Counted from the stretch's first letter, positions 575 to 15,533 are shown. The stretch: DNA of 18,768 nt from a virus (IMGVR_UViG_2923618136_000001); one strand, 5' to 3'. Translations and numbers: made by a program. Notes: generated from the letters alone by a model not told the origin.

Positions 575-596
575 ACGCCAGCGGTATTGCTAGCAT
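575..596 (-). repeat. Conserved intergenic hairpin motif, copy A
   Basis: Minus strand AT-GCTAGC-AATACC-GCTGGC-GT; same pattern at 16037-16058 and 18697-18718. Confidence 0.7.
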
Positions 597-1408
597 TAGG
601 TGAGCGCGGCCTCCCAGCATGCGGCGTCCCAGATCAGGTCGTCGGCGCCCTTCGGGATCTTCTTGGCGGCCTTGAACGCCTCGATCTTGGCGATCAGGTC
701 CGTGTCCTTCGGGTCGTACTTCGTGCTGTGCAGGTTCGCGGGCTCGTAGCCGCGAGCGAACAGCAGGCCGCGCAGGGTCTTGACGTGCCGGTGCTCGTCA
801 CCGGGCTTGAGGACGGGCAAGTTCTTCACCAGGGCCTCCGTGGTCAGAATCTTGGTCGGGATAGGCGGAACAGGCTTCGGGGTCGGAGAGGGCGGGCGAG
901 GCGCGCCCTTCTTGATCCAGGCGTACAGAGGGCCGCCGGGACAATTCGTAGCGAATCCGTCCTTGTGTCCCTTGATCTCGTTGCCTGCGTTGCCCTCGGC
1001 GCGCAGGTACTCGATCGCGTCCCTGATGCCGTGCAGCAGGAGATCGTTCGGCTCGGTGAACCCCAGCGACCCGACGAGCGCGAGCACCGCGTAATGCCCC
1101 GTGTTCAGGCCCGCGCCGTTCGCGGCCGGCAGCGCGTGCAGTCCGCGGCCGACGAACACCTGTCGGTGCGGACAACAGATCAGGCTGTAGCCGATGTCGA
1201 TGTACGGCTGCTCCCGCGCGCCCGCCATGTGCATGGTTTGGACCTGCCGGACGAGCTTGCCGCACTCCTCGTGGTCACGCTCGATCGCCGGGGGCACGTG
1301 ACCGCCCGTGTAGTGGATCTTCACGCCCTCGGTGCCGGGAATTCTGGTGTAGGACGCCGTGGGGGTCTTCGCTCCCCACGTGCGGCGACTGACGAGCTTG
1401 ATGCTCAT
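596..1408 (-). CDS. Endolysin: N-acetylmuramoyl-L-alanine amidase (Amidase_2/PGRP-like) with C-terminal PG-binding-like domain, 270 aa
   Basis: SRRTWGA, IHYTGG, DIGYS, VFVGRG and HKDGFATNCPG amidase motifs; Pro-rich linker; LPVLKPGD...VKTLRGLL binding-domain motif. RBS AAGGAGG before ATG 1408. Confidence 0.9.
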   Translation of the reverse strand: MSIKLVSRRTWGAKTPTASYTRIPGTEGVKIHYTGGHVPPAIERDHEECGKLVRQVQTMHMAGAREQPYIDIGYSLICCPHRQVFVGRGLHALPAANGAGLNTGHYAVLALVGSLGFTEPNDLLLHGIRDAIEYLRAEGNAGNEIKGHKDGFATNCPGGPLYAWIKKGAPRPPSPTPKPVPPIPTKILTTEALVKNLPVLKPGDEHRHVKTLRGLLFARGYEPANLHSTKYDPKDTDLIAKIEAFKAAKKIPKGADDLIWDAACWEAALT

Positions 1409-1447
1409 GCTGGTATCCGCCCTCCTTGCTTGATGTCCGATGTCCAC

Positions 1448-1882
1448 TCAGCCCTGGCTGTCGGCACCACTGCCTCCGGTACCGTCTGCGGTCATGGCAG
1501 TGACGCCAGCGCTACCGCTGGCATCGGTGGAGTTGTTGATGATCGAGATGGTTCCGGCGAGCTGGTGCTGATCCAGGTGAGCGGCCAGGCCGTCCTCCAC
1601 CCGGCGCACGCCGCGCTCCAGCCGGTCCACCGCATCCCTGAGCGACGTCCCGTGGTTGGGACGCAACTGCTCCTCTATCGTCGTGATCCGCTGAGGGAAG
1701 CCCGGCCGCGCCGCGACCCCGGGCCGCGCCGCCTCGCCCTGCCAGTCGTCGAGGAAGTTCTTCAAGCTGGCGAACGTCCGCCACAGCCAGGTCACGCCCC
1801 GGCTGAGCATCGCCAGCAAGCCCAGACCGCCGGCCACCATCCCCGCGATCACGAACACGTCTAGTGCCGGGTTCCCGGTCAT
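1448..1882 (-). CDS. Membrane protein of the lysis cassette (DUF2746-like), 144 aa
   Basis: N-terminal TM segment, then the LRPNHGTSLRDAVDRLE motif typical of actinophage pre-lysin genes. ATGA overlap with the upstream gene. Confidence 0.7.
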   Translation of the reverse strand: MTGNPALDVFVIAGMVAGGLGLLAMLSRGVTWLWRTFASLKNFLDDWQGEAARPGVAARPGFPQRITTIEEQLRPNHGTSLRDAVDRLERGVRRVEDGLAAHLDQHQLAGTISIINNSTDASGSAGVTAMTADGTGGSGADSQG

Positions 1883-2547
1883 CGGGCCCCTTCCAAGGTC
1901 TGGCCGACGAACGTGGCTGCGGGCTTCTCCTCGAACGTCGGCCTCATGGGCTGCTGGAGACTGGTCCGGTACCAGGCCACGGCCAGGCTGCGGGCCTTGA
2001 TCCGCAGCGGATCCAAGCGGGTCAGCTCCTTGATCGGTTCCAGCGGGTCAGGGGGCGCGACCCGGTTGGAGCCGACGTACAGCAGCGCGTCCTGCCTCAT
2101 CTGCCGCTGCTCCGGCTGCATACAGACCCGGTGTGTCTTGACGGACTCGATCCGGGCCAGGTGCGCGGCCAGCCGTTCGGCGTCCGGCACGTCCGGGGTC
2201 CAGCAGGTCGGCAGACCATGCGTGTCCTGCAGCACCGCGACCGCCGCCGGGTTCGTCAGCGACAGGGAGTCCTGCGGGTCCGGGATCCACGGCTCGTGCA
2301 AGATCACGTCTAGCAGCGTGTCCAGGTCTTCGGGGTCGATGGCGTACTCGGCCGCCCGCCACTCCATCGTGGAGTGCGGGAAAATGTGCATGTATACGCC
2401 GCCGTCCGGCCGGACTCGCGACACTCCCCATATCGGCTCGGCGCCGTCGTGGCTGCTGCGTTGCTCGGGGTGTTCCCCTCCGGACTGGGTGAGGCTGGTC
2501 GGCGTGTAGGCCAGCTCGGCGTCCCAGACGGTCCAGATTTCCGCCAC
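1879..2547 (-). CDS. Hub/fibre-2 partner protein (paralog of 5532-6014), 222 aa
   Basis: RBS AAAGGAG before GTG 2547. EWRAAEY...LDVILH and DPLEPIKELTRLDP align with the 160-aa protein. Confidence 0.75.
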   Translation of the reverse strand: MAEIWTVWDAELAYTPTSLTQSGGEHPEQRSSHDGAEPIWGVSRVRPDGGVYMHIFPHSTMEWRAAEYAIDPEDLDTLLDVILHEPWIPDPQDSLSLTNPAAVAVLQDTHGLPTCWTPDVPDAERLAAHLARIESVKTHRVCMQPEQRQMRQDALLYVGSNRVAPPDPLEPIKELTRLDPLRIKARSLAVAWYRTSLQQPMRPTFEEKPAATFVGQTLEGAR

Positions 2548-2570
2548 GTAGGCGCTCCTTTCAAAAACGA

Positions 2571-5351
2571 TCAGTGGCGGTGAGACCACCAGTAGAAGCC
2601 CTTGCCGGACCGGACTCCTCCGCCGTCCGACCAGGCCAGGCTGAAATCCGTTGGTGTCGAGGCGTCCTCGCACCAGTTGAAGTTCGGGGTGAGCGCGCCG
2701 TCTCTGACGACCGCGACCGGCCCCATGTTGGAGGCCATCGACGGCCCGTAGGTGATCGTCACGCCGTAGTAGCCGGACGGCACCGTGCCTGACCCGGCGT
2801 GGACCGCCGAGTACGACGAGTGCGTTGTGGTGTCCCAGAACCGGCCTTGGAGGTAGTACCGGCCGGTGGCGTTGTTATGGATGTAGGTCTCGGTGGAGGA
2901 GATCCCATCGCTGTAGCCGAACTGGCCGTAGCCCTCGGCCACGTCCAGGCCGCCGCCGTTGTTGCCGGATCCGGAGTTGTCGCGGATCCGCAACCGGATC
3001 AGTCCGGCCGCGACCTGCAGCTCCGCGCGGGCCGAGTTGAACTGGTTGCTGCCACTCGTGATGAACGTGGTGGTTTCGCCGGGATACATGCCGTCGACCG
3101 CGTAGAACCGCGAGTAGTTGCTGTTCCCGGCCGGATAAAACCGCAGGTCCAAGGTGGCGGAGTCGAGCACGAACCGCTGCCCGGTCGCCGCCGAACGCAC
3201 CACTGAGCCCGTGATGGTCTTACCGGTGATCGCGTCAGCGGCGATCTTCGCGGCCGTAATGGCATTCGCGGAGATCTTGTCAGCTGTGATCGCGTTCGCT
3301 GCGATGCGCCCGGCCTGGATCGCCCCCACAGCGATCTTGTCGGCCTCGATGGCGTTGGCCTGAATGTGCCCGGCCTGGACCGCGAGCGCCTGAATCAGAC
3401 CACCCGTGATCGTCCCAGCGACGATCTTTGCTTCACCGGGGATGGTCCCGTCGATGATGTGCTCAGCGCCATCGATGACCTGACCGATCACGTCCGTGTC
3501 GACCAGGGCCACCGTGGCGACGACTCCGTGCGCCGACTCCTCGGACTCGTTGCCAGACCGGTCCACACTGGTCAGCCAGATTTCCCGATCCGCGCCGTAC
3601 GGCTGGCCAGGGATCACCACCGACCCGCGCGCGTCGAGAGAGCCGACGTCGACCGCCCCCGGCGCGAGCGGATCCTGCATCCACACCCGGACCCGCTCGA
3701 AGTCGGCGGGCATCGGCACGCCACCAGCACCCAGGCCGTCCCACTCCACGTGGATCACACCCAACCGGGTGGACAACGCCGGCGTGCTCGGCACGGGCGG
3801 CGCGTAGGGGTCGTCCGGGATCAGCACGGCGACAGCCGCCGAGAACTCGCCCTTCACGCCGTCGTTGACTCCGCGGACCTTGAAGCCGTACTCCCAGCCC
3901 ACGACCAGCGGCGACACCTCCGCCGTGGTGTCGGCCTGCGCGGTCTGCGCGACCAGGAACCACAGCTGGCCCTCCTCGTTGCGGCGGGCGTAGACCTCGT
4001 AGCCGTCGACGGTGACCGCGACGCCGTTGACGTCGCCGATGACCGGCGCCCACGTCACCACGGCGAGGCCCTGGGCGTAACCCGATGAGTCGAGGTAGGC
4101 GACCGGCTCGACGATCAGCCCGACCGGCGCGGCCGGAACCCGGCCGCTGGAGTCCGGAGCCGGGGTCGCGCCCGATCCTCCGGAGGCGACGCCGCCGGTG
4201 AGGATCCCCGCCGCCTGGCGGGCGAGCCGAATGTCTCTCTCCAAGAACCGGTCGTTGAGGGTGAGGTTGCCGCTGATCAGCCCAGACGCATCACACGACA
4301 GGGTGATCTGCCGGACCCGCAGCGACTGCATCACGCTCTGGTCGCCGGGCGCGCGGATGTAGTCGCCGGGCGCGTAATGCGCAAGCGGTAGTGATAGCGC
4401 CATATACGGCTTGATGGACCGGGTGAGCTGCACCCGCTCCCCGGCCGCCCGCTCCAACGCGTTCTGGCCAAGGAGCTGCGCAGTGCCCTCGTCTGTCACG
4501 CCGCCCTGGCTCTGGTAGGTCTCCCACCTCCCCCACGGCATCACCGCGGACGGGTTGGTCACCTCCACCTGCAGGCCGGCCTCACCCACGATCAGGATGG
4601 ACGAGGCGGCGTCCTCGAACGTCGCGTCGTCCGGCGCTGAGTCGATGTCACGTCCCAGCCGCAGCTCGACCGGCCCCGCCCCGGAGGCGAGGTCGCGGGC
4701 CAGCACGGTGCCCTCATTGAAGACCCTCAGCGTGCGGCCCTGCATGCACCAGTCGATGACGCCCTGGTCGGCCAGGTTGATCAACAGCGTCAGCAGGTCG
4801 GTGCCCGGGTCCAGGCCGAGCGTCAGAATCTTCGCCCACGGCCGCCCGTCCGAGTCCTCGTCCGGCGTGAAGTCGATGTCCAGGAACCGCAGAGTGCCGC
4901 GCGCCTGCCCCTCGGCAACCAGGGTTGCCAGAATCGCCCCGGCTGGGACGGAGTTGAACGGGCGCTTGCCGTCGACCATGGCCAGGTTGGGATGCAGCAC
5001 GAGCTTGCGGAGCTGCCAGCCGTAGCCGGGGCAGTCATACGACCGCGTCCCGGTCTGGTCCGTGCCGTCGCCGCTCCTCTTGATCCGTAAGAACCGGGCG
5101 TTCTCCGGCTCCAGCCACGGGCCGCCATCGATGGAGAATTCCATGGCGATCTCGCACGGCTGTGCGAGCCGGGAGGCGTCGGCGGCGACCGAGCTGTAGG
5201 CCAACCGCAGCGACGACACGTCATTGAGCGGCATCCCAGCGTCCCAACCCAGATGCTCGGGCAACACGCCGAGGCGCGGCCCGTTCGGGGAGTAGACGAC
5301 CAGCCGCAGCCCATACCGCTGCGGGGTGCCGGGAATGATGAGGTCAGGCAC
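2571..5351 (-). CDS. Tail hub / central fibre protein 2, 926 aa
   Basis: N-terminal hub-like region, two FN3-like domains (YGFKVRGVN; WLTSVDRSGNES), about 7-8 ten-residue AANAITADKI-type repeats, and a C-terminal lectin-like tip. Paralogous to 6396-9131. Confidence 0.8.
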   Translation of the reverse strand: MPDLIIPGTPQRYGLRLVVYSPNGPRLGVLPEHLGWDAGMPLNDVSSLRLAYSSVAADASRLAQPCEIAMEFSIDGGPWLEPENARFLRIKRSGDGTDQTGTRSYDCPGYGWQLRKLVLHPNLAMVDGKRPFNSVPAGAILATLVAEGQARGTLRFLDIDFTPDEDSDGRPWAKILTLGLDPGTDLLTLLINLADQGVIDWCMQGRTLRVFNEGTVLARDLASGAGPVELRLGRDIDSAPDDATFEDAASSILIVGEAGLQVEVTNPSAVMPWGRWETYQSQGGVTDEGTAQLLGQNALERAAGERVQLTRSIKPYMALSLPLAHYAPGDYIRAPGDQSVMQSLRVRQITLSCDASGLISGNLTLNDRFLERDIRLARQAAGILTGGVASGGSGATPAPDSSGRVPAAPVGLIVEPVAYLDSSGYAQGLAVVTWAPVIGDVNGVAVTVDGYEVYARRNEEGQLWFLVAQTAQADTTAEVSPLVVGWEYGFKVRGVNDGVKGEFSAAVAVLIPDDPYAPPVPSTPALSTRLGVIHVEWDGLGAGGVPMPADFERVRVWMQDPLAPGAVDVGSLDARGSVVIPGQPYGADREIWLTSVDRSGNESEESAHGVVATVALVDTDVIGQVIDGAEHIIDGTIPGEAKIVAGTITGGLIQALAVQAGHIQANAIEADKIAVGAIQAGRIAANAITADKISANAITAAKIAADAITGKTITGSVVRSAATGQRFVLDSATLDLRFYPAGNSNYSRFYAVDGMYPGETTTFITSGSNQFNSARAELQVAAGLIRLRIRDNSGSGNNGGGLDVAEGYGQFGYSDGISSTETYIHNNATGRYYLQGRFWDTTTHSSYSAVHAGSGTVPSGYYGVTITYGPSMASNMGPVAVVRDGALTPNFNWCEDASTPTDFSLAWSDGGGVRSGKGFYWWSHRH

Positions 5352-5535
5352 CGAACCCCCCGCTCACCGCCCCCGTGAACTGCTGCTCAAGCTGGTTCAC
5401 GCGCTCTTGGAGCTGCTCCACAGCGGTCGCCAGGACCGCGTTTTCATACGTCAGCGCATCAACCTGCGCGCTGTACCTCTGGCGCAGCGCTGCCACTGTC
5501 TTCTGTAGATCCACCGACACGTCGGTCATGCTCAC
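5344..5535 (-). CDS. Small coiled-coil protein, 63 aa
   Basis: Heptad-like LATAVEQLQERVNQLEQQ; overlaps both neighbours (coupled); AGGGAG lies before the alternative ATG 5529. Confidence 0.7.
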   Translation of the reverse strand: MSMTDVSVDLQKTVAALRQRYSAQVDALTYENAVLATAVEQLQERVNQLEQQFTGAVSGGFGA

Positions 5536-6014
5536 TCCCTGTTGCTGAGCCTGAATCGGTCGATCTCCATACGGATCGCCGCCGTCTTGATCGGGTCGAT
5601 CCGCGTCTGATCCCGGATGACCTGCAGCGGATCAGCCGCCTTGGCCGCGCGGGCGGCCCCCGCCGCCGCGGCGGTGATGGTTCCGTAACGCTCCTTGCAG
5701 ATGGCGAGCTGCTCAGTCACCTGCGCGCGAGCGGCCTCGACGTCGAGCAGGCCGGGCGCCGGCATGTCCAGCTCCCCGGCCGCGTGAGCGGGCGCGAGCA
5801 ACGCCGCATGCAGGATCACGTCCAGGGCTTCATCGACGGTGGCCAGGCCGTACTCCGCTGCCCGAACCTCGATCGCTTCCTTCGGCACGTAGGAAGCGAA
5901 CCCCGAGCTCGGGTCGCCGTCGACCGGCTCGTAGGTGATCAGCCACGCGTCCTCGCCGGGACTGCTCACCTCGCGGACCTGAGTGATACGCCACTGCTGG
6001 ACCGGCATCGTCAC
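5532..6014 (-). CDS. Hub/fibre-1 partner protein (paralog of 1879-2547), about 160 aa
   Basis: EVRAAEY...LDVILH and DPLQVIRDQTRIDP motifs. GTGA overlap with the 122-aa gene; start could be 6017, 6014 or 6008. Confidence 0.75.
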   Translation of the reverse strand: MTMPVQQWRITQVREVSSPGEDAWLITYEPVDGDPSSGFASYVPKEAIEVRAAEYGLATVDEALDVILHAALLAPAHAAGELDMPAPGLLDVEAARAQVTEQLAICKERYGTITAAAAGAARAAKAADPLQVIRDQTRIDPIKTAAIRMEIDRFRLSNRE

Positions 6015-6379
6015 CACTCGGCCGACGGGATCGCCACGCCGCTGAAAGTGAACGTGACCGTCTCCTCGTAGTCCCTGTAGCGCCGGACCACGACCGTGTT
6101 GCTACCGTCAGCCAACGCCTGCGCGGCGTCCTGCGCGGCAGTGGAAGGGTCGATGAAACCCTCGGGCGGATGCTCGAAGTGCTCCACCGCCCACCGGTAT
6201 GTCGTCGGGGAGACCGGGACACGGAACGCGACGTACCACTGCTCACCGGGGCGGTACACGGTGGATCCGTCAGGCAGGAAGATTCCCCACATCATTCCTG
6301 GGCTCTTGAGCACCTCTACGGCCGCCTCATCGAGCGCGGCAACATCAGGGGTAACGGAATCCCCGTTGATCCAAAACAT
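6011..6379 (-). CDS. Hypothetical protein downstream of hub/fibre 1, 122 aa
   Basis: Strong RBS GAAGGAGG before ATG 6379; fills the gap in a tightly packed operon. Confidence 0.75.
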   Translation of the reverse strand: MFWINGDSVTPDVAALDEAAVEVLKSPGMMWGIFLPDGSTVYRPGEQWYVAFRVPVSPTTYRWAVEHFEHPPEGFIDPSTAAQDAAQALADGSNTVVVRRYRDYEETVTFTFSGVAIPSAEW

Positions 6380-6395
6380 GGTCCTCCTTCATCGA

Positions 6396-9131
6396 TCACA
6401 TTCGCCAGGCCCACATGTTCAGCAAGATCGTGAAAACAGTCGGCGTGGCCAGGCCGCTCTCGCTGCTGCGCAGCGTGAAGTTCGTCGTCGTTGGGTTACG
6501 CATGCAGAAGCTCAACCGCTCCGGGGTCGGGTTGTCCGCGGTGAACACCACACGCGGCACCGTGGCCATCGTGAATGTCCAGTTCACCAAGTACGACGAA
6601 GCGCCCGTCAGCGACACCGCCCGCATGATCAGTCCGGCCTCGTTGCCCGTGAACGACCACTTCCCGGCGAACTCGGTCGACGCGGCGGAGAACTTGAAGC
6701 GGTTCAGGTTCGCGCCGATGTCGTTGTATCCGACCTCGAGTTCGTTCGGTTTGAGGAACAGGTATCCGCCGCCAGCGAGACCAGATGTCGGGTTGACGAT
6801 GTGGACTCGGTAGTCGGTGGCCGCGTGGACCACCCGGCACTGCGCGGTGTTCGCGCCGTTGACGCCGGACACCGTGACGATCGTCGCCTCGCCCGCGTAC
6901 AACGACCCGTCGACGTACATCCGGGCCGGGTTCGTTCCGGTGCCCGGAAGGAAACGGATCTCCGGTTGCGTCGCGCCGGTCGGGTTGATGACGATCCTGT
7001 TGCCCGTCAGCCCCGTCGCGAGCTGCCCGACGATGCTCACCGAACCGGTCGACGAGACCAGGACGGTTTGCGTGCCGCCTGCGTCGTACGCGGCCAGGCC
7101 GGTCGCGTTGAGCTCCACCCGGGCCGCGAGCGGATTCCCGGCGACGATCCGAGTCGCCAGGGCCAGGATCGCCTCCAGCTTGTCGGCGGTGACCGCGTTG
7201 GCCGCGATGTTCCCGGCCTCGACGGCACCAGCCGCGAGCCTGTCCGTCGTGACGGCGTTCGCCATCAGAGCGCCCGTGCTGATCGACTCCTCAGCGGCGT
7301 CTCCGTCGACGAGCGGCACTGTGGCGATCGTCGCTGTGCTCGACCTCGCCGACTCGTTCCCAGCGTGGTCGACGGCGGTCAGCCAGAACTCGCGGAGCTC
7401 GCCGTACGGCTGGCCGGTCACGACGATCGACCCAGTCGCCTGCAGGTACCCGACTTCGGCCGCGCCGGGGTCGAGCGGGTCTTGCATCCACACCCGGACC
7501 CGATGGAAGTCGGACGGCATCGGCGCCGAGCCGACGCCGATCCCATCCCACGCGACGTGGATCACGCCGAGCCGGGTGGACAGCACCGGCGCGGCTGGCG
7601 CGGGCGGCGGGGTGTCGTCGTCGTCGATGGCCACGGCGTACTCGTCGGAGAACTGCCCCTTGACGCCCTGGCTCGTGGCCCGGACCTTGAAGGCGTACTC
7701 CCTGCCCACGATCAGCGGGCTGTAAGTCGCCGTGGTGCTGCCCGGCTCCGTGGTCGCGACGAGGAACCAGGGCGCGCCGACGACGTTGAACCGCATGAAC
7801 AGCTCGTAGCTGTCGATGTCGATCGCCTCGCCCGTCACGTCCAGGAGCACCGGACCCCACGTCGCGGTGATCTGCCCCTGCGCGAACCCGGACGCATCCA
7901 CGTAGGTGATCGGGTTCACAATCAGCCCTGCGGGTTTCGCGGCCGTACGGCCGCGCGGTGACGGCGGTGCCGGTTGCGCACCGGACCCACCGGACGCCGT
8001 CGACCCGCCGACGATCCCGGCGGTGCGGCGCGCGAACCGGATCGACTGCTCCAAGAAGCGGTCGTTCAGGATGACGTTGCCGCCGACCACGCCCTTGGCG
8101 TCCTTGGTGAGGGTGATCTGCCGGACCCTCAGCGGAGCCAGCGTGCCGCGACTCGCGGGCGCGATGACCTTGTCTCCGGGCTGGTAGTCGCGCCACGGCA
8201 GCCACCGCGCCCCGTTCGGCGTGATCTCACGGGTGTGCTGCACCCGCTCCTGGGCGGCGCGCTGCAGCGACGACTCAGCGAGCAGGAACGCGGTCCCCTC
8301 GTCGGAAACACCGCCCTGGCCGATGAAGTTCTCCCACCGGCCCCACGGCAGGGTCGCGCTGGAGCCGTACGACCGGCGGAACCCGTCGTCACCCACGACG
8401 AGCACAGCGCTCGCGGCGTCTTCCAAGGTGCCCGTGTCGGGGGCGTCGAGCACGTCGCGGCCGAGCCGCAGGTCCACGCGGGGTGCTGTCGTCCGATCAC
8501 GCGCGAGCTTGGTGTCCGCGTTGTAGACGTGGAGGGTCCGGCCCTCGAAACGGAAGTCGATGACGGACTGCTCAGCGAGGTTGATCAGCGTCGTGAGCGC
8601 GTCCAGGCCCGGCTGGTAGTAGATGGTCAGGATCTTGTTCCACGGCTTGTGATCGCTGTCATGCTCCGTGTTGAACGTCCAGTCGAGCACGGGCAGCGCG
8701 CCTCGCTCCTGCGCCTCGGCAAGGAACGTCTGCAGGATGCTGCCGGGCGTCGCCGAGGTGAACGCTCTCTTGCCATCGACCAGCGGCGCGGGCCCTGGGT
8801 AGAGCACGACCTTGCGGAGCTGCCAGCCGTAGCCAGGCATCTCGAACGTCTCGACACCGGTCTCGTCGGTGACGTCCATTCCTCGTTTGATCCGCAGGAA
8901 CCGCGAGTCCGGGGATTCGGTCCACGTCTGTCCGTCTTCGGACCATTCGATGGCGATCTCGCACGGCTGCGCGAGCAGGCCGGCGCCGAGGGCGTGGCGG
9001 CTGTAGCGCAGGGCCAGGGCGGGCACGTCGTTCAGCGGCTGCCCGGCCTGGAACGCGAGCGGGTGCGGGAGCAGGCCGAGCTTGTCGCCGTTCGGGGCGT
9101 ATGCGACGAGACGGAGGTCGAACACGCCCAC
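6396..9131 (-). CDS. Tail hub / central fibre protein 1, 911 aa
   Basis: Follows Dit in operon order. Hub-like N-terminus, two FN3-like domains (YAFKVRAT; WLTAVDHAGNES), about 4-5 AANAVTADKL repeats, RVELNATGLAAYD shaft motif and a lectin-like tip. Start may be GTG 9125. Confidence 0.8.
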   Translation of the reverse strand: MGVFDLRLVAYAPNGDKLGLLPHPLAFQAGQPLNDVPALALRYSRHALGAGLLAQPCEIAIEWSEDGQTWTESPDSRFLRIKRGMDVTDETGVETFEMPGYGWQLRKVVLYPGPAPLVDGKRAFTSATPGSILQTFLAEAQERGALPVLDWTFNTEHDSDHKPWNKILTIYYQPGLDALTTLINLAEQSVIDFRFEGRTLHVYNADTKLARDRTTAPRVDLRLGRDVLDAPDTGTLEDAASAVLVVGDDGFRRSYGSSATLPWGRWENFIGQGGVSDEGTAFLLAESSLQRAAQERVQHTREITPNGARWLPWRDYQPGDKVIAPASRGTLAPLRVRQITLTKDAKGVVGGNVILNDRFLEQSIRFARRTAGIVGGSTASGGSGAQPAPPSPRGRTAAKPAGLIVNPITYVDASGFAQGQITATWGPVLLDVTGEAIDIDSYELFMRFNVVGAPWFLVATTEPGSTTATYSPLIVGREYAFKVRATSQGVKGQFSDEYAVAIDDDDTPPPAPAAPVLSTRLGVIHVAWDGIGVGSAPMPSDFHRVRVWMQDPLDPGAAEVGYLQATGSIVVTGQPYGELREFWLTAVDHAGNESARSSTATIATVPLVDGDAAEESISTGALMANAVTTDRLAAGAVEAGNIAANAVTADKLEAILALATRIVAGNPLAARVELNATGLAAYDAGGTQTVLVSSTGSVSIVGQLATGLTGNRIVINPTGATQPEIRFLPGTGTNPARMYVDGSLYAGEATIVTVSGVNGANTAQCRVVHAATDYRVHIVNPTSGLAGGGYLFLKPNELEVGYNDIGANLNRFKFSAASTEFAGKWSFTGNEAGLIMRAVSLTGASSYLVNWTFTMATVPRVVFTADNPTPERLSFCMRNPTTTNFTLRSSESGLATPTVFTILLNMWAWRM

Positions 9132-9141
9132 CCCCTGATCA

Positions 9142-9199
9142 TGTATACCGGTAGACAGATGGGGTGCCGCACTCTAATGTGTCTACCAGTAGACACATT
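9142..9199 (+). promoter_or_regulatory. Sigma70/HrdB-type promoter overlapped by two palindromic operators
   Basis: -35 TAGACA 9152-9157, 17-bp spacer, -10 TAATGT 9175-9180. Operators TGTaTAC-CG-GTAGACA (9142-9157) and perfect AATGTGTCTAC-CA-GTAGACACATT (9176-9199). RBS GGAGG 9201-9205. Confidence 0.8.
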
Positions 9200-9209
9200 G
9201 GGAGGCGTA

Positions 9210-9527
9210 ATGGACATGGAACTCGTCACGATCCACGACGTGGACGGCCTGTTCGACAACCAGATCGATGGCGCGCTGCCCTGGAACATCGACCCGGTCT
9301 TCGCTTTCGAGACCGAGGTCGACGCCCTGCAGGTCCTCCAGCATCTCGCCGAGCAACTCGACACGACCCGCCAGCAGCTCCACCACGTGATGCGCTACAT
9401 GGAAGCCGCCGTGAAGGCCGCAGGCGCAACCGTCGAGGACGGGTCACCGATCAAGCCTCAGGCGATCATCAACCACACGGGCCTCTCGCGCCGTACCGTC
9501 TACAAGTTCCTCGGCACGCGCCAGTAG
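9210..9527 (+). CDS. Accessory HTH protein (helical N-part, C-terminal resolvase-type HTH), 105 aa
   Basis: PQAIINHTGLSRRTVYKFL HTH; RBS GGAGG; it is the 3' end of the 7974-9527 ORF-track frame. Confidence 0.8.
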   Translation: MDMELVTIHDVDGLFDNQIDGALPWNIDPVFAFETEVDALQVLQHLAEQLDTTRQQLHHVMRYMEAAVKAAGATVEDGSPIKPQAIINHTGLSRRTVYKFLGTRQ

Positions 9528-9536
9528 TCTGCGGCC

Positions 9537-9845
9537 ATGAACCCTCAAATCGAGGCAATGCACGCTGCCAACGTCGCCCAGGTCAACGCCCAGATGCGCG
9601 CGGAAGGCGTATGCAAGATGCACCTGAGTAAGCCGCGGCCTGCGGCGACAAGGGTGTGGCACTACACGAACGGCAACGAGGTCCCGATGTGCCAGGAGTG
9701 CGTCGACGCCTTCGCCCAGGGCGTCACAGACGGTTGGGCTCAGCCACCTGTGAAGATCGAGTCGCTTGGGTCACAGGTAGGAGCGACGGCCCCGAATCTT
9801 CAGAGCCGACGCGCCAGACGTGCTCGACGCCGTCGCGCTGACTAA
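9537..9845 (+). CDS. Accessory small protein with possible Zn-binding CxxH...CxxC motif, 102 aa
   Basis: Starts 9 nt after the HTH stop with gene-like codons (CKMH...CQEC). No clear RBS; the last 75 nt overlap the Dit 3' end antisense. Confidence 0.55.
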   Translation: MNPQIEAMHAANVAQVNAQMRAEGVCKMHLSKPRPAATRVWHYTNGNEVPMCQECVDAFAQGVTDGWAQPPVKIESLGSQVGATAPNLQSRRARRARRRRAD

Positions 9846-10640
9846 GACGGCCCGCGAGTGCGGGTCGCCCAACGCCATCGCGGGGGTCAGGTGTAGCCAC
9901 CGGAACGCCGACCCCGGGCCGGTGGCGTTGATGTCGCCGGTCACGTCCGTCCCTTCGTCGAGGTCCCACGTGTCGGTCGTGACGATCGCGGCCCTGAGCT
10001 GCCCGCAGTCGATCAGCAGGTGCTGCCCGGCGAGCACAGTCTCCGCGTAGGACACCGTGCCCCCGGTGGCCACGTCGACGACCGAGGGATGCACGGCCGG
10101 GCCGGTCACCCGCACCAGCGCATCCGTGACCGGCCCCGTGGACCCGGCAAGCGGGGTCACGATCTGCGCGGCCCCCGGCAGGGTGCCGGTCCACGTCGAA
10201 TCGACCTCGTCCCGCCAGTACACGCCCGGGACCTTCACCACGGCGGTCAACCTGGCCAGCGCCGCCCCGACATTGACCTCCGGCTCCGACACGGCCTCGA
10301 CGGTCACGCCCGCGACGCGGATGATCGACCCGGCCACCCACTTGCAGGTGATCAGCCGGTGCCGCACGCCGAGCAGCGCGCCCAGCGCTTCGAGGTTGGC
10401 CTCCATCTGCTCGACCCCGCCGTCCGCCCCGGACGGGGTCCGCGAGTAGACGGTGAGCGCGAGCCCGAACGACGTCGCCTCATGGTCGAGGCTCATGATC
10501 GGCAGTTCACCGGCCCGGCCCGCCACGGCCACGTTCGCCGCCCGCACCCCCGGCAACGGCCGGCGCTTGGTGCCCTTCTTCAACTTCCAGCACCCGCTCG
10601 GATGATCCAGCGGGACACCGTCGAGGACGTACGTCGCCAC
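9771..10640 (-). CDS. Distal tail protein (Dit-like), 289 aa
   Basis: Directly after the tape measure; size and beta-rich pattern fit Dit; typical C-terminus KIRGRRSYL. Confidence 0.75.
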   Translation of the reverse strand: MATYVLDGVPLDHPSGCWKLKKGTKRRPLPGVRAANVAVAGRAGELPIMSLDHEATSFGLALTVYSRTPSGADGGVEQMEANLEALGALLGVRHRLITCKWVAGSIIRVAGVTVEAVSEPEVNVGAALARLTAVVKVPGVYWRDEVDSTWTGTLPGAAQIVTPLAGSTGPVTDALVRVTGPAVHPSVVDVATGGTVSYAETVLAGQHLLIDCGQLRAAIVTTDTWDLDEGTDVTGDINATGPGSAFRWLHLTPAMALGDPHSRAVLVSATASSTSGASALKIRGRRSYL

Positions 10641-12857
10641 TCACACCACCCCCAGTGCACCGGCCATTTGCAGGCCACGATTGATCGTCTGCGATGACGG
10701 TTCGGCCTGCGGGTTGATCGTGGTCAAGTTGAACACCACGCCCCCGCCTCTCCCCGGCCCGGCGCCGCCGGCCACTCCCCCGCCCGGCCCGACCGGCACG
10801 GCCAGCTCCGGGGAGAACGCTGTGCTTAGCTGCCCAGCGATGTTCCGGGCCGTGCGCAGCACCTGCCCGGCCGACCCTTGCATGCCCTGCGCCATGCCGA
10901 GCATCGTGAACTGGCCGATCTGAGCGAACACCCGGCTGGGCGAGGAGATACCGAGGGCCTGGCGCACCCAGTCCGGCATGATCTGCGAGAAGAACCCGAG
11001 GATGGAGTTCCGGAACCAGTCCCACATGGACACGATGCCGTTCCACAGGCCGCTGATCACGGCCACGCCGATGTTGCCCATCACCGAGGCGATGTCACCG
11101 ACTGCGGACACGATCTGTCCCGGCAGGTTCATGAAGAAGCCGACCAGCGTCCCGCCGATCCACTGGCCGATCCCTCGCACCAGGTCAGGGATGATGCTGT
11201 GACCGATCAGCACGTCATACAGCCACCCGAACGCGGCGGCGACCGTCTGCACCATCGCGTTCACGACCAAGACGATCATCTGCACTGACGGGCCCAGAAC
11301 GTACGACAGGCCCTGCGCGAGCAGCGTCACCAGGGTGATGACCTGCGGCAGCACTGTGACCGCGAGCTGCACCAGCGGCGGCAGCAGCGGCATGACCGCA
11401 TAGAGGATCTGCGTGAACCCTGATGCGAGCTGGACCAGCATCGGAGCGAGCGAGAGAACAAGCTGCACAGTCGGAGGCAGAAGCGACACCGCGAGCTGCA
11501 GCAGCATCGGCAGGATCGGCGTCACGGCGGGCAACAGCGACGTGAACGCCTGAGCCACCTGAACCAGCGCGGGCGTAAGCATGATCACCGCACGCATGAC
11601 CTCCGTGCCGACCAGGACCGCGGCCTGCGTCAGCAACGGCAGAATCGGCGCGATGGCCTGCACGAGCACACCGAGGACCTGAACCAGCGCCCCGCCCACG
11701 ACGGCCGCAAGCTGCCCGACGAGCGGCAACAGCGGCGACAGGGCAGGTAGCAGCGCCGTGGCGATCTGCGCAACCAGATTCGCCAGCGGGCCAAGCAGCG
11801 GGATCACGGCCAAGAGGAACTGCCCGAACGCGGTCGTGAGCTGCCAGACGACCGGCTGGAGCTGCACCAGCACCGGCACCAGAGCGGCGGTGATCGCTGA
11901 GACGACCTGCACCAGTACCGGCATCAACGCTGTCGCGAAAATCGCGACGAGCTGCACCAGCGGCGGCAGCAGCGGGGCCATGGCCGCGACGAGCTGGCCG
12001 AGGCTCACGACGAGCACGGCGACGTGCGGCGCGACCTGCGTAAGCGCTTGGATGAGCGCACCACCGAGGGCCTGCACGATCATCGCCAGGGCACCCATGA
12101 CCGGCCCCATGAGCTGCGCGCCCACCTGGACGAGCGTGGCGATCAGCGGGGCGAGGGCCTGGAGGATCGAGCCCACGCCGACGATGAACTGAGCGACCGC
12201 ACCCGAGTTCGCCGCGACCGCCTGCGCGATCACGCCGAAGAACCCGGCGAGCTGCGCACCGAAGATGCCCATCACGCCGGCGAGCTGAGACAGGACCGGC
12301 ACGGCAGCGGCAACGATGTGCTGCAGCGCGGGCAGCGCCGACTGGAGGAACTGCACCAGGCCCGTCGTGAGTTGTCCCAGCAGCGGCGCGATCTGGCCGA
12401 ACATCTGAGTCAGCGCGGGGGCGATCATCTGCGCGAAGATCGAATGCAGGTTCGCGGCGACCTGCACCAGCGGGGCCTCGAACACACTGGCCGCTCGCTT
12501 CAGCTCCATCGTGACGCTGTCGGCCATCGCGGAAAACGCCAGCTTGACGCCTTCCGCTTGCGCGGCCGCGGCGATACCGATCCCGCCGAGCACGCCGACG
12601 ACCCCGAGGAAGCTGGCTCCGACGATGACAGCGGAACTGCTTGCGGCTACGCCGAGCGCGCCGAGCGCTGTGGCCGCCGACGCCGCGGCGATCCCGACTC
12701 CTGCGCTCATCGAGGCGGCTTGGACACCGATCGACCCGAAGATGCCGCCGAACTGGCCCGCGAACCGCTGCAGGTCGTTCAGGGCCCGGCGGAGCCCGGG
12801 GGTGAGGTAGTCCCGCAGGCTGATCGTGGCGACCAGGTCGCCGACGTTGAGCGCCAC
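10641..12857 (-). CDS. Tape measure protein 2, 738 aa
   Basis: N-terminus MALNVGDLVATISLRD; long amphipathic LLPPLVQL repeats; LGISSPSRVF...G motif; RBS AGGAGGTGA. Confidence 0.85.
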   Translation of the reverse strand: MALNVGDLVATISLRDYLTPGLRRALNDLQRFAGQFGGIFGSIGVQAASMSAGVGIAAASAATALGALGVAASSSAVIVGASFLGVVGVLGGIGIAAAAQAEGVKLAFSAMADSVTMELKRAASVFEAPLVQVAANLHSIFAQMIAPALTQMFGQIAPLLGQLTTGLVQFLQSALPALQHIVAAAVPVLSQLAGVMGIFGAQLAGFFGVIAQAVAANSGAVAQFIVGVGSILQALAPLIATLVQVGAQLMGPVMGALAMIVQALGGALIQALTQVAPHVAVLVVSLGQLVAAMAPLLPPLVQLVAIFATALMPVLVQVVSAITAALVPVLVQLQPVVWQLTTAFGQFLLAVIPLLGPLANLVAQIATALLPALSPLLPLVGQLAAVVGGALVQVLGVLVQAIAPILPLLTQAAVLVGTEVMRAVIMLTPALVQVAQAFTSLLPAVTPILPMLLQLAVSLLPPTVQLVLSLAPMLVQLASGFTQILYAVMPLLPPLVQLAVTVLPQVITLVTLLAQGLSYVLGPSVQMIVLVVNAMVQTVAAAFGWLYDVLIGHSIIPDLVRGIGQWIGGTLVGFFMNLPGQIVSAVGDIASVMGNIGVAVISGLWNGIVSMWDWFRNSILGFFSQIMPDWVRQALGISSPSRVFAQIGQFTMLGMAQGMQGSAGQVLRTARNIAGQLSTAFSPELAVPVGPGGGVAGGAGPGRGGGVVFNLTTINPQAEPSSQTINRGLQMAGALGVV

Positions 12858-12859
12858 GT

Positions 12860-12905
12860 CTCACCTCCTGAAAGGTCCGCATGGGCTGGGATTTCAGGAG
12901 GTGAG
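12860..12905 (-). promoter_or_regulatory. Hairpin sequestering the TMP2 ribosome-binding site
   Basis: Perfect 14-bp inverted repeat CTCACCTCCTGAAA (12860-12873) / TTTCAGGAGGTGAG (12892-12905). On the mRNA the 3' arm is the TMP2 SD. Confidence 0.8.
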
Positions 12906-12919
12906 GCGCGAGCCGGGTG

Positions 12920-14836
12920 TCAGGAGACGAGGCCGGCCGCCGCGGCGTACTGCAAGCCCCTATTCACGGTCTTGGAGGTGGGCTCGGCCTGCGGGTAGTT
13001 GTTCGTGACGTGCACCGTCACCTGGGATGCTCGGGCTGCGGCGTTCTGCCCGCTGAACCCTCCGCCGCCCTCGATGGCCACCACGGACCCGCCGTTGCCC
13101 GTGCTGCCCTCGATGGTGTTCTTCGGCTTCGGCAGCGGAACATCGAACTTGGTCGCGGTCCCCACGATGCGGCCCAGCCCGTCGCGGGCCACCGACTGCA
13201 CCTTGTCGACCATGATCTTGGCGGCGCTCATCGCGATTTTCTCGTTGTCCTTGATGCCCTTGGCCAGGCCGAGCACGGAGAACATGCCGAACTCAGCGAA
13301 GACCGTGGACGGCGAATTGATGCCGAGCAGGCCCTTGATCCAGCCGAGGAACCCGTTGATCAGGTTGCCGACCGAGGAGGTGAATTTGTTCCAGGTGTTC
13401 TGGAATCCCTGGATGATGCCGTTGACCATGTCCGAGCCCAGGGTCTGCAGCTTCTTGAACGCCTCGGTGACGGTCTTGCCGAAGACGCCGACCGCGTTCT
13501 TGATCAAGTCGAAAGCGCCTCGGAAGTCCCCTTGGAAAAGCTTGATGACCGCCTGCACGGCGCTCAGGACCAGGGGAATCACGGCGGTCGCGAGCTGCAT
13601 CAGGGGTGGCAGGAACGGCGTGACGGCAGCGACCAGCTTCACGAAGACCCCAGCGAGCAACGTCAGAACCGGGGTCAGCGCCTTGATGATCGTCACGATC
13701 GGCGGTAGAAGCCCGACCAGGAGCTGCGACAGCGGCGGCAAGATCGGCAGCAAAGCCGTGATGACCTGCCCGAACGCGGACGCGACCTGAGCCAGCACCG
13801 GCTGCAGCGCCACCAGAACGGGCTGCAGCGCCGCCGTCAAGGACTGCGCGATCTGGACCAGCACCGGCATGAGCGACGTCGCCAGGGTGGCCGCGAGCTG
13901 CAGGAACGGCGGCAGGAGCGGGATCACGGCGGTGAGGATCGCCCCGAAAGCCGTCACGATCTGAGCGATGACCGGCCCGAGCTGGATCAGAACTGGCGCA
14001 AGCGATGTTGATAGCGCGTTACCAACCCCGGCCAGCGCAGCGAAAAGCGGCCCGGCGACCTGCCCGGCCACCTGGACCAGGGCGGCGAGCACCGGACCTA
14101 TCGACTGCAGAACCCCGCCGATCCCGGTTACCAGGGTCGCCAGAAGACCGCTGTTCTGGCTCAACGCCTGCGTGATCGGCTCCATGAACCCAGCGATTTG
14201 CCCACCGAAGGTACCGAGGCTCCCGGCGAGCTGGCTGAGCATCGGAGCGACCGCCGCCACGAGTCCGGAGACTGCCGGCAGCATCGGCTGCAGGAAGTCG
14301 CCCAGCCCGGAGGTGAAGTCACCGATCAGCGGAGCCAGATCGGTGAACATGCCCTGCAAGGCAGGCGCGATCTCGCTGGAGAACATCGTCTTCAGCGACC
14401 CGGCCGCCTGGATCAGCGGCGCCTGGAACACCGTCGCGGCGTCCGCCATGTCCGCCTGAACCGAGGTCTTGAGATCACCGAAAGCGGCCTTCACCGCTGG
14501 TGCGGCCATCGCCGCGTTGATGCCGAGCTTCGCGATCCCGAGCGCGGCGCCAGCAAAAGCGAAAGCGACAGCGCCGCCGACCGCGACTCCGGCCGCTCCC
14601 ACCCCGGCCAGCAGCGCGCCGCTCTTGGCCCCGGCCGAGGCGATGGCCTTGCCCGTTGACGCCGCCCCCGACACGACGGCCGACGACATGCGTCCGGCCG
14701 CCATCCCGGCGGCGATCAGGGCGGCGTGGATCCCCGTCGCGTTGACCTTGATTCCAGCGGTGGCCCTGCTGAACGGCCCTGTCATCTGGTCTCGGAATGA
14801 CAAGGTGGCGTACAGGTCACCAATGTTGATCGCCAT
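12920..14836 (-). CDS. Tape measure protein 1, 638 aa
   Basis: N-terminus MAINIGDLYATLSFRD; amphipathic repeats; LGINSPSTVF...G motif; RBS AGGAGG; follows the tail assembly chaperone. Confidence 0.85.
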   Translation of the reverse strand: MAINIGDLYATLSFRDQMTGPFSRATAGIKVNATGIHAALIAAGMAAGRMSSAVVSGAASTGKAIASAGAKSGALLAGVGAAGVAVGGAVAFAFAGAALGIAKLGINAAMAAPAVKAAFGDLKTSVQADMADAATVFQAPLIQAAGSLKTMFSSEIAPALQGMFTDLAPLIGDFTSGLGDFLQPMLPAVSGLVAAVAPMLSQLAGSLGTFGGQIAGFMEPITQALSQNSGLLATLVTGIGGVLQSIGPVLAALVQVAGQVAGPLFAALAGVGNALSTSLAPVLIQLGPVIAQIVTAFGAILTAVIPLLPPFLQLAATLATSLMPVLVQIAQSLTAALQPVLVALQPVLAQVASAFGQVITALLPILPPLSQLLVGLLPPIVTIIKALTPVLTLLAGVFVKLVAAVTPFLPPLMQLATAVIPLVLSAVQAVIKLFQGDFRGAFDLIKNAVGVFGKTVTEAFKKLQTLGSDMVNGIIQGFQNTWNKFTSSVGNLINGFLGWIKGLLGINSPSTVFAEFGMFSVLGLAKGIKDNEKIAMSAAKIMVDKVQSVARDGLGRIVGTATKFDVPLPKPKNTIEGSTGNGGSVVAIEGGGGFSGQNAAARASQVTVHVTNNYPQAEPTSKTVNRGLQYAAAAGLVS

Positions 14837-14862: not shown

Positions 14863-15189
14863 TCAGTCGGAGGAGGGGATGCCGCGTCTGCGGCTGGTTG
14901 CCTTACTGGGAGGCGGGGCGAGCTGACGAGACAGCCGGGTGTCTTCCGCCAGCAGCCCGAGGATCCGAACCCGTAGCCACCGCCAGGACCGACCCGTCAG
15001 CACGCCGGGCGCGTCGAGGTCGATCCCGTAGTGGCTGTGCAGGTCCGCCTCGATCAGGTCCCAGTGGGTCAGGACGCCTTCCCACGTGAGGCCTTTTGGC
15101 GCGGGTTCGTACCACTCGTAGAGCCCCGTGACTTCGTCGTACTCGCCGCCGCCGATGAGGTCGCCGGGTCCGGGGCCTGTGCTTCCGGG
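14863..15189 (-). CDS. Tail assembly chaperone T-segment, probably expressed by -1 frameshift from the upstream ORF
   Basis: The -1 frame encodes HWDLIEADLH..YGID...RSWRWLRVRILGLL, typical of actinophage chaperone T segments. It has no RBS-supported start of its own. Candidate slip site CCCGGAA at 15189-15183. Confidence 0.65.
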   Translation of the reverse strand, partial: PGSTGPGPGDLIGGGEYDEVTGLYEWYEPAPKGLTWEGVLTHWDLIEADLHSHYGIDLDAPGVLTGRSWRWLRVRILGLLAEDTRLSRQLAPPPSKATSRRRGIPSSD

Positions 15190-15533
15190 CTGCCACCGGA
15201 CTCCCAATACCGCGTCGCGGTGTCGAGGTCGGCAGCGATCCACAGAAACGCCGTCACACCGGCGAGCTTGATCACCGGCCAGGAGACCTTGTCTGCGAGC
15301 AGCTCCCCATGGACGGGGCCGAGGCACCGCTGGTAGAGGTCGAGCTCCTCGCCGTCGTCCAGGTCGGCGAGGTCAGCCTGCTTGCCGTTCGCGGCGGCGA
15401 CACCGGCCTGCATGAGCCTCTGGCAGAGCAGGCCGGTCTCCGCGGACGGCGCCGGGATGGTGTACTCCTTGCCGCCGATCGGCAGGGTGAGCGTGGTGTC
15501 GAGAAACGCGTCGAGGGCCTTGAGCTTCGCCAT
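15069..15533 (-). CDS. Tail assembly chaperone (G-like), 154 aa
   Basis: Lies between tail tube and TMP; LDAFLD..LTLPIGGKEYTIPAP motif; low-complexity S/T/R tail overlapping the T segment. Confidence 0.8.
   Translation of the reverse strand: MAKLKALDAFLDTTLTLPIGGKEYTIPAPSAETGLLCQRLMQAGVAAANGKQADLADLDDGEELDLYQRCLGPVHGELLADKVSWPVIKLAGVTAFLWIAADLDTATRYWESGGSPEAQAPDPATSSAAASTTKSRGSTSGTNPRQKASRGKAS

Follow-up and report, generated by a model that had tools for sequence, protein, structure and literature searches.

How would a siphovirus-type tail use two tape measure protein (TMP) genes and two genes for its central hub when the operon holds a single Dit gene? The question is raised by a stretch of viral DNA of 18,768 nt (IMGVR_UViG_2923618136_000001), called the window here, in the chromosome of a host placed in Streptosporangium (Streptosporangiaceae) by the source names of homologs and related loci. 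A sequence-only reading of the window had proposed that the phage builds two virion types at once, differing together in tail length and receptor tip. After comparison with related prophages, we tentatively favour alternative homotrimeric tips in separate particles, with two independent duplications diversifying the tail tip. New here is a conserved, selected double-hub tail tip, which is partly also a double-ruler one.

Organization of the duplicated genes

The prophage is of siphovirus type and apparently complete; the window (G000:C1:2747352-2766119; G+C about 68%) covers the tail half of its late operon. The duplicated genes and the Dit gene between them were located as follows (aa, amino acids).

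12920..14836, minus strand: TMP1, 638 aa, with PHROG tape-measure matches
12858..12919, minus strand: hairpin between the TMP genes, from folding energy
10641..12857, minus strand: TMP2, 738 aa, with PHROG tape-measure matches, adjoining Dit
9771..10640, minus strand: putative Dit, 289 aa, single copy, by its position between TMP and hub
6396..9131, minus strand: hub 1, here hub a, 911 aa, Tal/baseplate-hub domain and fibre
5532..6017, minus strand: partner 1, 161 aa, homolog of partner 2
2571..5351, minus strand: hub 2, here hub b, 926 aa, 46% identical to hub a
1879..2547, minus strand: partner 2, 222 aa, downstream of hub b

TMP1 and TMP2 were colinear, with 33% identity from end to end (E 5e-88) and N- and C-terminal motifs in common. 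The hubs were conserved to about residue 610 and diverged beyond it, with 55% identity over the hub domain. Partner 1 and partner 2 were 26% identical (E 2e-8). An all-against-all BLASTP of the window's proteins returned only these three pairs, so tube, chaperone and Dit are single-copy. The sequence-only reading had likewise described three diverged paralog pairs in one operon with single tube, chaperone and Dit genes, and all six open reading frames (ORFs) were indeed intact, on the minus strand and of the sizes it gave (partner 1 being 161 aa here). The layout is not interleaved gene by gene, as it had stated; instead, two tandem duplications, TMP-TMP and hub-partner/hub-partner, flank one Dit.

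The two copies of each pair were linked neither by long inverted repeats nor by near-identical or recent conversion tracts; the longest shared DNA was 300 nt at 72% identity. The earlier claim that the scheme involves neither DNA inversion nor a diversity-generating retroelement (DGR) agreed with this. Invertase-type repeats were absent from the window: the longest inverted repeats in the hub region (18–29 nt, 72–94% complementarity) did not flank genes, and both hubs were complete on one strand. Near-identical template/variable repeats of the DGR type were also absent, the longest direct repeats (72% identical) being the paralogs themselves, and no reverse-transcriptase family was found among ten scanned proteins of the region (TMPs, Dit, hubs, partners and lysis genes).

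It is extremely improbable that the pairs reflect an assembly artefact or two adjoining prophages fused into one. We found nothing in favour of this, and several observations contradict it: the host genome (10.6 Mb) is in 3 contigs, complete chromosomes and numerous independent drafts show the gene order again, and the head, connector, tube, chaperone and lysis genes are present as a single set.

Both hub proteins resemble central tail hubs

In hub a, a Tal/baseplate-hub domain (residues 1–375) is joined through a flexible Gly/Ser/Pro linker to FN3 domains and a repeat fibre, and the protein ends in a conserved C-terminal tip. Hub b has the same architecture, with a longer repeat fibre and an exchangeable tip. 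The flexible linker after the hub domain is 25–30 residues long in both, and the hub domains share 62 invariant columns. The hub N-terminal domain was recognised neither by Pfam, nor by sequence searches of solved structures, nor by profile search. No family reached the Pfam cut-off for hub 1 or the partners, hub 2 had sub-threshold fn3 and Gp58 matches, and the solved-structure sequence searches matched only the FN3 domains of both hubs.

Residues 1–380 of hub 1 were assessed by structure, with an AlphaFold2 model built on a 48-sequence alignment (pLDDT 91, pTM 0.86). Foldseek matched this model with probability 1.0 and E-values of 1e-12 to 3e-18 to Mu gp44 (1wru), Listeria gp18 (3gs9), the phage 80alpha baseplate model (6v8i chain AE), the Bxb1 tip (9d93), Douge (8zdo) and T4 gp27. 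Further matches were to MuSo2, VgrG and contractile injection system hubs. Given the confident model and these matches to central hubs, both proteins are predicted to be true central Tal/baseplate hubs with a fibre. The earlier expectation that a tip has room for one central fibre is in line with this: both the 911-aa and the 926-aa protein are of the gp27/Tal type, and in siphophages characterised by structure each tip has a single homotrimeric hub (PMC13252515).

An exhaustive profile-free search returned 1423 cluster representatives with the hub N-terminal domain, mostly at the N-terminus of proteins of 900–2000 aa. The nearest hub relatives in cultured and uncultured phages were 25–35% identical (one place per record) and came from an uncultured human-gut bacteriophage record, Streptomyces jumbo siphophages and Arthrobacter phages. 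In the prophage relatives described below, hub a follows Dit across a variable gap, and hub b abuts Dit where it is the only hub.

The two fibres differ in how their ends evolve. The C-terminal 250 residues of hub a aligned in 253/253 ortholog pairs (median identity 44%), whereas the hub b C-terminus matched in 173/253 and hub b length varied from 900 to 1084 aa. The hub a tip is thus conserved and the hub b tip exchangeable.

Irregular hub genes were seen as well. In a Nonomuraea prophage (L089, 12825–17821) three ORFs take the place of an undivided hub b, one of 506 aa with hub and FN3 domains and two with FN3 and fibre (648 and 528 aa); the locus may be decayed, or hub and fibre may be encoded as separate proteins. 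Hub remnants with stop codons were present in two other genomes (G131 and G183).

Two full-length tape measure proteins

TMP1 matched phrog_58 (E 7e-29) and TMP2 phrog_305 (E 3e-37), each with many more TMP PHROGs, and tblastn searches with the TMPs landed on annotated TMPs of actinophages. A close TMP relative was not found among cultured phages. No family reached the Pfam cut-off for TMP2, and TMP1 had a borderline Baculo_PEP_C match.

The order chaperone-TMP1-TMP2-Dit is kept in relatives. TMP1 orthologs ranged from 638 to 1148 aa (13 relatives) and TMP2 orthologs from 694 to 808 aa, and the two lengths did not co-vary. Since the lengths do not track each other, independent rulers suit the data better than two chains in one lumen. 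Degenerate repeat units of 129 nt (43 aa) were detected in both genes, with 9 copies in TMP2 (11364–12400) and 3 in TMP1 (13592–13947), and these would offer an obvious route to the length changes of TMP1 orthologs.

TMP2 was closer than TMP1 to the single TMP of relatives with one TMP and two hubs. The C-terminal motif of all single TMPs is kept by TMP1 and has diverged in TMP2 of the two-TMP phages; over the last 32 residues TMP1 and TMP2 are still 56% identical. From these comparisons, TMP1 is predicted to be the ruler added in the two-TMP sub-clade, and TMP2 the ancestral one.

The hairpin at 12858–12919 buries the Shine-Dalgarno sequence and start codon of TMP2 (−44.2 kcal/mol, z −3.6) and is kept in relatives with compensatory changes. 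Hairpins burying the ribosome-binding site (RBS) were found upstream of nearly every TMP gene in the group (L060–L114), be it TMP1, TMP2 or a single TMP. The hairpin thus seems to be a general 5' coupling element copied along with the gene, with TMP translation seemingly coupled to the upstream gene. We considered a role as a switch of the TMP1:TMP2 ratio and rejected it, as a like hairpin precedes TMP1 and the single TMPs of relatives. In some relatives an ORF of 229–258 aa lies between chaperone and TMP; the idea that it is a piece of a split TMP was likewise dismissed, the ORF being a moron that resembles a cytosine methyltransferase.

Distribution and order of the duplications

Related loci were collected by a whole-genome search of genus and family together with a Dit-centred scan, with one genome per species (58 loci). 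Forty-five loci, the window included, could be classified; they are prophages of Streptosporangiaceae and Nocardiopsidaceae.

Class A, 13 loci, the window among them: two TMPs and two full hubs
Class B, 13 loci, for example in Sphaerisporangium viridialbum: one TMP and two full hubs
Class C, 8 loci: one TMP, a bare hub of 381–385 aa and a full hub
Class D, 11 loci: one TMP and one hub

Classes A–C span at least 6 genera of Streptosporangiaceae, and class D was also found in Nocardiopsis and Allonocardiopsis. Two hub genes were present in 34 of the 45 loci, plus three loci decayed upstream (L065, L071 and L078). Neither two TMPs with one hub nor hub a without hub b occurred in any classified locus (0/45 each).

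In the Dit tree the second hub corresponded to one clade of 34 rows (99* support). TMP number changed twice, by one gain and one loss. The loss is in a prophage of S. saharense (L083), which lies inside the two-hub clade and has lost TMP2 and hub a; it retains a TMP1-type ruler alone with hub b, whose branch length was 0.20 vs 0.15–0.19 in its sisters. The trees suggest that the second hub is old and arose about once, and that TMP doubling came later, in one sub-clade. In the hub trees, hub b grouped with the sole hubs of single-hub relatives (99* support), which marks hub b as the probable ancestral Tal hub-fibre. Full-length hub a copies fell outside that clade, the copies nearest Dit making up a separate group.

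The bare hubs formed a clade of their own on a long branch (0.85). They occur in eight Nonomuraea prophages (L081, L082, L086, L089, L090, L091, L094 and L095; at about 10.7–13.2 kb in each locus), where they precede a full hub-fibre. They end right after the hub-domain helix and have no linker, fibre or partner 1.

One further observation concerns a 95,680-bp contig of Planomonospora parontospora (G134 contig 23; L045/L046), which carries hub a at one end and hub b with the lysin at the other, in the same orientation. This contig may be a closing circle (an extrachromosomal or excised prophage) or a prophage split by assembly.

The census bears directly on the model of the sequence-only reading, in which TMP1 works with one hub and TMP2 with the other, so that virions differ in length and tip together. 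Two TMPs were found in 13/26 loci with two full hubs and in 0/19 others, L083 lost both its second TMP and its second hub, and the diverged C-terminal motif of TMP2 in two-TMP phages could mark a new hub specificity. We nevertheless consider such matched assembly lines improbable. Thirteen prophages use two full hubs on one TMP, so that a second ruler is not required for choosing a hub. Within the two-hub clade the TMPs were doubled in what is essentially a single nested event, which provides just one or two independent contrasts, too few for a statistical test, and the co-occurrence has no statistical support. No exclusive pairing was visible either: L083 combines a TMP1-type ruler with hub b, and single-TMP two-hub phages combine a TMP2-like ruler with both hubs. 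The identity remaining between the TMP C-termini also counts against it. It is equally improbable that one late operon hard-wires a dimorphism free of rearrangement, its two tail morphs differing in length through the two rulers and in receptor tip through the two hubs, and matched through recognition of one hub by the diverged TMP2 C-terminus. If true, such a dimorphism might be of use where the host presents several cell surfaces, for example hyphae and spores.

The proposal of two virion types therefore stood in part. Intact, selected TMP and hub pairs and TMP lengths that do not co-vary speak for it; the linkage of tail length to tip was not borne out by the 13 prophages with two full hubs and one TMP. 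The check for co-occurrence in related prophages, which that reading had suggested, gave a similarly divided answer. The hub pair often occurs without the TMP pair (13 loci, and 8 more with a bare hub), and two TMPs with one hub were never seen, so the copy numbers are nested and not fully independent.

Selection on every copy

Omega between the window and a sister prophage was 0.30 for TMP1, 0.44 for TMP2, 0.38 for hub a, 0.35 for hub b, 0.52 for partner 1 and 0.26 for partner 2. The single-copy Dit, tube, chaperone and lysin genes gave 0.22–0.30. For the bare hubs omega was 0.18–0.48, down to 59% identity. Every copy is under purifying selection, in agreement with the earlier view that all copies look intact.

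These values bear on the explanation that one copy of each pair has no role in the virion, being either a redundant spare on its way to loss or active outside the particle, for example as a hub that interferes with the tail assembly of competing phages. Losses do occur, as in L083, and decayed loci were found with TMP fragments (L065, L071, L078) or a split hub a (L072). The junction of Dit and hub a is a hot spot for morons, where genes could be expressed on their own, and a fibre-less bare hub would suit the role of a poison subunit. Against this stand the purifying selection on every copy, near that on single-copy structural genes, the persistence of both pairs through 40–60% amino-acid divergence in several genera, and the coupled starts within the late operon. 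We regard an idle copy as unlikely, if slightly less so than the matched assembly lines.

Separate tips or a shared tip

The reading that we favour, still tentatively, starts from an old duplication that would have placed a second hub cassette (hub a, partner 1 and the 61-aa protein) between Dit and the ancestral pair of hub b and partner 2. The two hubs would assemble as separate homotrimers, each with a fibre and partner to itself, and would compete for the one Dit/TMP initiator. A single burst would thus contain particles with tip a, from a conserved family, and particles with the exchangeable tip b, giving two receptor specificities without DNA rearrangement. Later, in one sub-clade, a second full ruler (TMP1) would have been placed between the chaperone and the ancestral TMP2, with its own copy of the RBS hairpin. 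The initiator would take either ruler, and ruler choice and hub choice would be unlinked. Two tail lengths in the two-TMP sub-clade are plausible; for the rulers of the window, at 1.5 Angstrom per residue, they would be about 96 and 111 nm.

Several lines of evidence point this way. In the canonical core, with its single homotrimeric hub, two candidate hubs would have one site to occupy. L083 has hub b only, on an ordinary branch, so hub b can occupy Dit by itself. Unequal fibre lengths and a partner for each hub favour separate homotrimers. TMP1 and TMP2 lengths (638–1148 vs 694–808 aa) are ill suited to two chains sharing a lumen, and the 13 prophages with two full hubs and one TMP imply that the hub pair needs no TMP pair.

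Other observations weigh against separate particles. Hub a was never found without hub b (0/45 loci), and the eight Nonomuraea prophages keep a fibre-less bare hub a, without partner 1, under purifying selection; fibre-less alternative tips would be wasted particles. A hub a that is never alone and can lose its fibre under selection fits two equivalent tail types poorly. The conserved tip of hub a and the swapped tip of hub b also suit two receptor binders on one particle. The presence of either hub protein in virions is a prediction.

The same observations lead to a competing explanation, in which both hubs would be in every particle. Between Dit and hub b, hub a would serve as an added adaptor, as another layer of hub or as a member of a mixed trimer. 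A conserved binder (a) and a variable one (b) would thus cooperate at each tip, for example with reversible attachment followed by committed binding. Hub b often occurs without hub a, and the converse was never seen; in 8 prophages selection has kept a bare hub a beside a full hub b; and the hub a tip is conserved in all 253 pairs, with the hub b tip exchanged. The gene order Dit, a, b would mirror the order of assembly, and the 25–30-residue linker in each hub could let a fibre leave the axis. A precedent for co-assembly exists in the type VI secretion system (T6SS), where paralogous gp27-like VgrG subunits form heterotrimers.

The opposing points are of several kinds. Hub b of two-hub phages barely differs from the L083 hub, which must bind Dit directly. 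Unequal numbers of fibre repeats mean that mixed trimers could not make a regular trimeric fibre. The bare hubs, on their long branch (0.85), may have taken a new role and so have little bearing on full-length hub a. Neither a double hub layer nor a mixture of hubs is present in any solved siphophage tip, and the reported core is 6:6:3 (PMC13252515). We consider a shared tip possible but on the unlikely side; the lead of alternative tips in separate particles over it is narrow.

Other genes of the operon and moron cargo

The single minus-strand operon runs from head-tail connector genes through tube, chaperone, TMP1, TMP2, putative Dit, hub 1, a 122-aa ORF, partner 1, a 61-aa ORF, hub 2 and partner 2 to a holin-like gene and an endolysin. 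Large terminase, portal and MuF-like head protein genes lie upstream, beyond the window, so the structural module looks complete. The remaining features of the window are listed below.

15069..15533, minus strand: tail assembly chaperone (G-like), single copy, from its position before TMP and overlapping ORFs
14863-15327, minus strand: likely T extension of the chaperone, in a shifted frame overlapping the G-like chaperone
9537-9845, plus strand: small ORF of 102 aa in the Dit-hub 1 gap region
9207-9527, plus strand: helix-turn-helix (HTH)-like small ORF within the Dit-hub 1 gap
6011..6379, minus strand: 122-aa ORF between hub a and partner 1, with a strong RBS
5344..5529, minus strand: 61-aa coiled-coil ORF, its stop overlapping the hub b start
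1448-1882, minus strand: holin-like protein, PHROG holin match
596-1447, minus strand: endolysin, PHROG endolysin match, at the late operon end

A strong terminator hairpin follows the lysis genes at 207–251. Chaperone orthologs were 48–85% identical in relatives.

Dit is assigned from its position. The protein had a weak PHROG "minor tail protein" match (E 2e-4). Its sequence matched nothing in Pfam or PDB, also when a profile of 16 sequences was used; Pfam on 16 orthologs gave nothing useful. It was 45–88% identical across the 58 related loci.

Partner 1 always follows full-length hub a and is absent where hub a is bare; ten orthologs aligned. Nearly all relatives have partner 2 after hub b. 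Its 70 homologs were all named hypothetical protein and nearly all from Streptosporangiaceae, with one weak Streptomyces match. The AlphaFold2 model of partner 2 (pLDDT 89) had no convincing fold match: the best E was 0.12 in PDB with Foldseek and 0.04 in BFVD, and a VIA-wide search reached a best Z of 2.9. An ESM Atlas feature search gave no usable match. Its linkage to the hub suggests a fibre chaperone or a part of the tip.

The 122-aa and 61-aa ORFs had been overlooked in the sequence-only reading. The 61-aa coiled-coil ORF was found only in loci with two full hubs. The 122-aa ORF had no family match in Pfam or PHROG; it has one clear ortholog, in Nonomuraea bangladeshensis (L096, 68% identical), and weak ones (25–26%) in L082 and L074.

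The gap between Dit and hub 1 measures 639 bp (9132–9770) and holds the two plus-strand ORFs, which look like moron cargo. The HTH-like ORF had a weak homolog in L069 only, and the gaps of other relatives carry different cargo. Both the Dit-hub a and the hub a-hub b junctions are moron hot spots (gaps of L044, L045, L049, L050 and L057; L081 12398–13771; L094 12649–14112). Their cargo includes the HTH cassette of the window, paired small secreted proteins (L057) and opposite-strand membrane proteins of 457–487 aa (L081, L094). A third hot spot lies between chaperone and TMP; in L044, L047, L050 and L051 its cargo is a cytosine methyltransferase.

In Nonomuraea sp. NPDC049758 (L114, 10871–19672) an insertion of about 9 kb lies between Dit and hub a. 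About 2.2 kb past the right end of the window (L118:2161-4716, minus strand) we observed an 851-aa MuF-like minor head protein with a C-terminal ADP-ribosyltransferase toxin-like domain, with PHROG matches to both parts.

Comparison with known systems

In solved siphophage tails a single ruler species goes with a single homotrimeric hub at each tip, whereas this lineage keeps two hub genes and one of its branches two rulers. A search of the available literature found no siphovirus described with a pair of full TMP paralogs or a pair of Tal genes; it returned instead chaperone pairs, split TMPs (in a PMBT24 relative) and jumbo myophages. The lineage offers matched natural controls (one hub; bare hub and hub; two hubs; two hubs and two rulers), and the two-TMP branch is a natural test of ruler choice.

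Alternative receptor-binding ends are produced by Mu Gin and P1 Cin with an invertase and inverted repeats, and by the BPP-1 DGR with a reverse transcriptase and template/variable repeats. Unlike in those systems, both genes here are complete, on one strand and predicted to be co-transcribed, without such repeats. The VgrG proteins of the T6SS are similar in that paralogous gp27-like subunits of one genome can share a spike. VgrG paralogs, however, share a trimeric beta-helix, whereas the fibres here have unequal repeats and the tail is non-contractile.

The siphophage tip core, as in the mycobacteriophages Claus, Corndog and Mysterious, consists of a tube hexamer, a Dit hexamer and a hub/Tal homotrimer (6:6:3; PMC13252515). 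The prophages described here share with it the order chaperone-TMP-Dit-hub, a gp27-like hub N-terminus and an FN3-bearing central fibre on the hub protein. They differ in having two hub genes, and in one sub-clade also two TMPs, per single Dit, and a bare hub in 8 relatives; no solved tip explains the second hub.

Jumbo Staphylococcus myophages carry tandem tape-measure-like genes, one of them with peptidoglycan hydrolase domains (bioRxiv 10.1101/2020.12.14.422802). Two tape-measure-like genes per phage are thus common to both. Those tails are contractile and one copy carries hydrolase domains, whereas the paralogs here are colinear, full-length and without enzyme domains, in a small siphovirus module.

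There is a functional likeness to Tuc2009 and TP901-1, lactococcal phages whose virions, as described in PMC6115969 (citing Stockdale et al. 2013), carry either full-length or truncated Tal. In that account two alternative hub forms come from one phage and specialise infection without DNA rearrangement, which makes it a precedent for mixed virions. There, one gene is involved, the lysin domain is lost by proteolysis and receptor binders are separate, in the baseplate; here, two diverged genes (46% identical) each encode a fibre and tip, and mixed particles are a prediction; the likeness is one of function and not of membership. Either placement of the hubs would extend the rules of the tail tip. 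Mixed tip types would amount to the Tuc2009 trick in genetic form, and a shared tip would have a second hub layer or bare hub unseen in solved structures.

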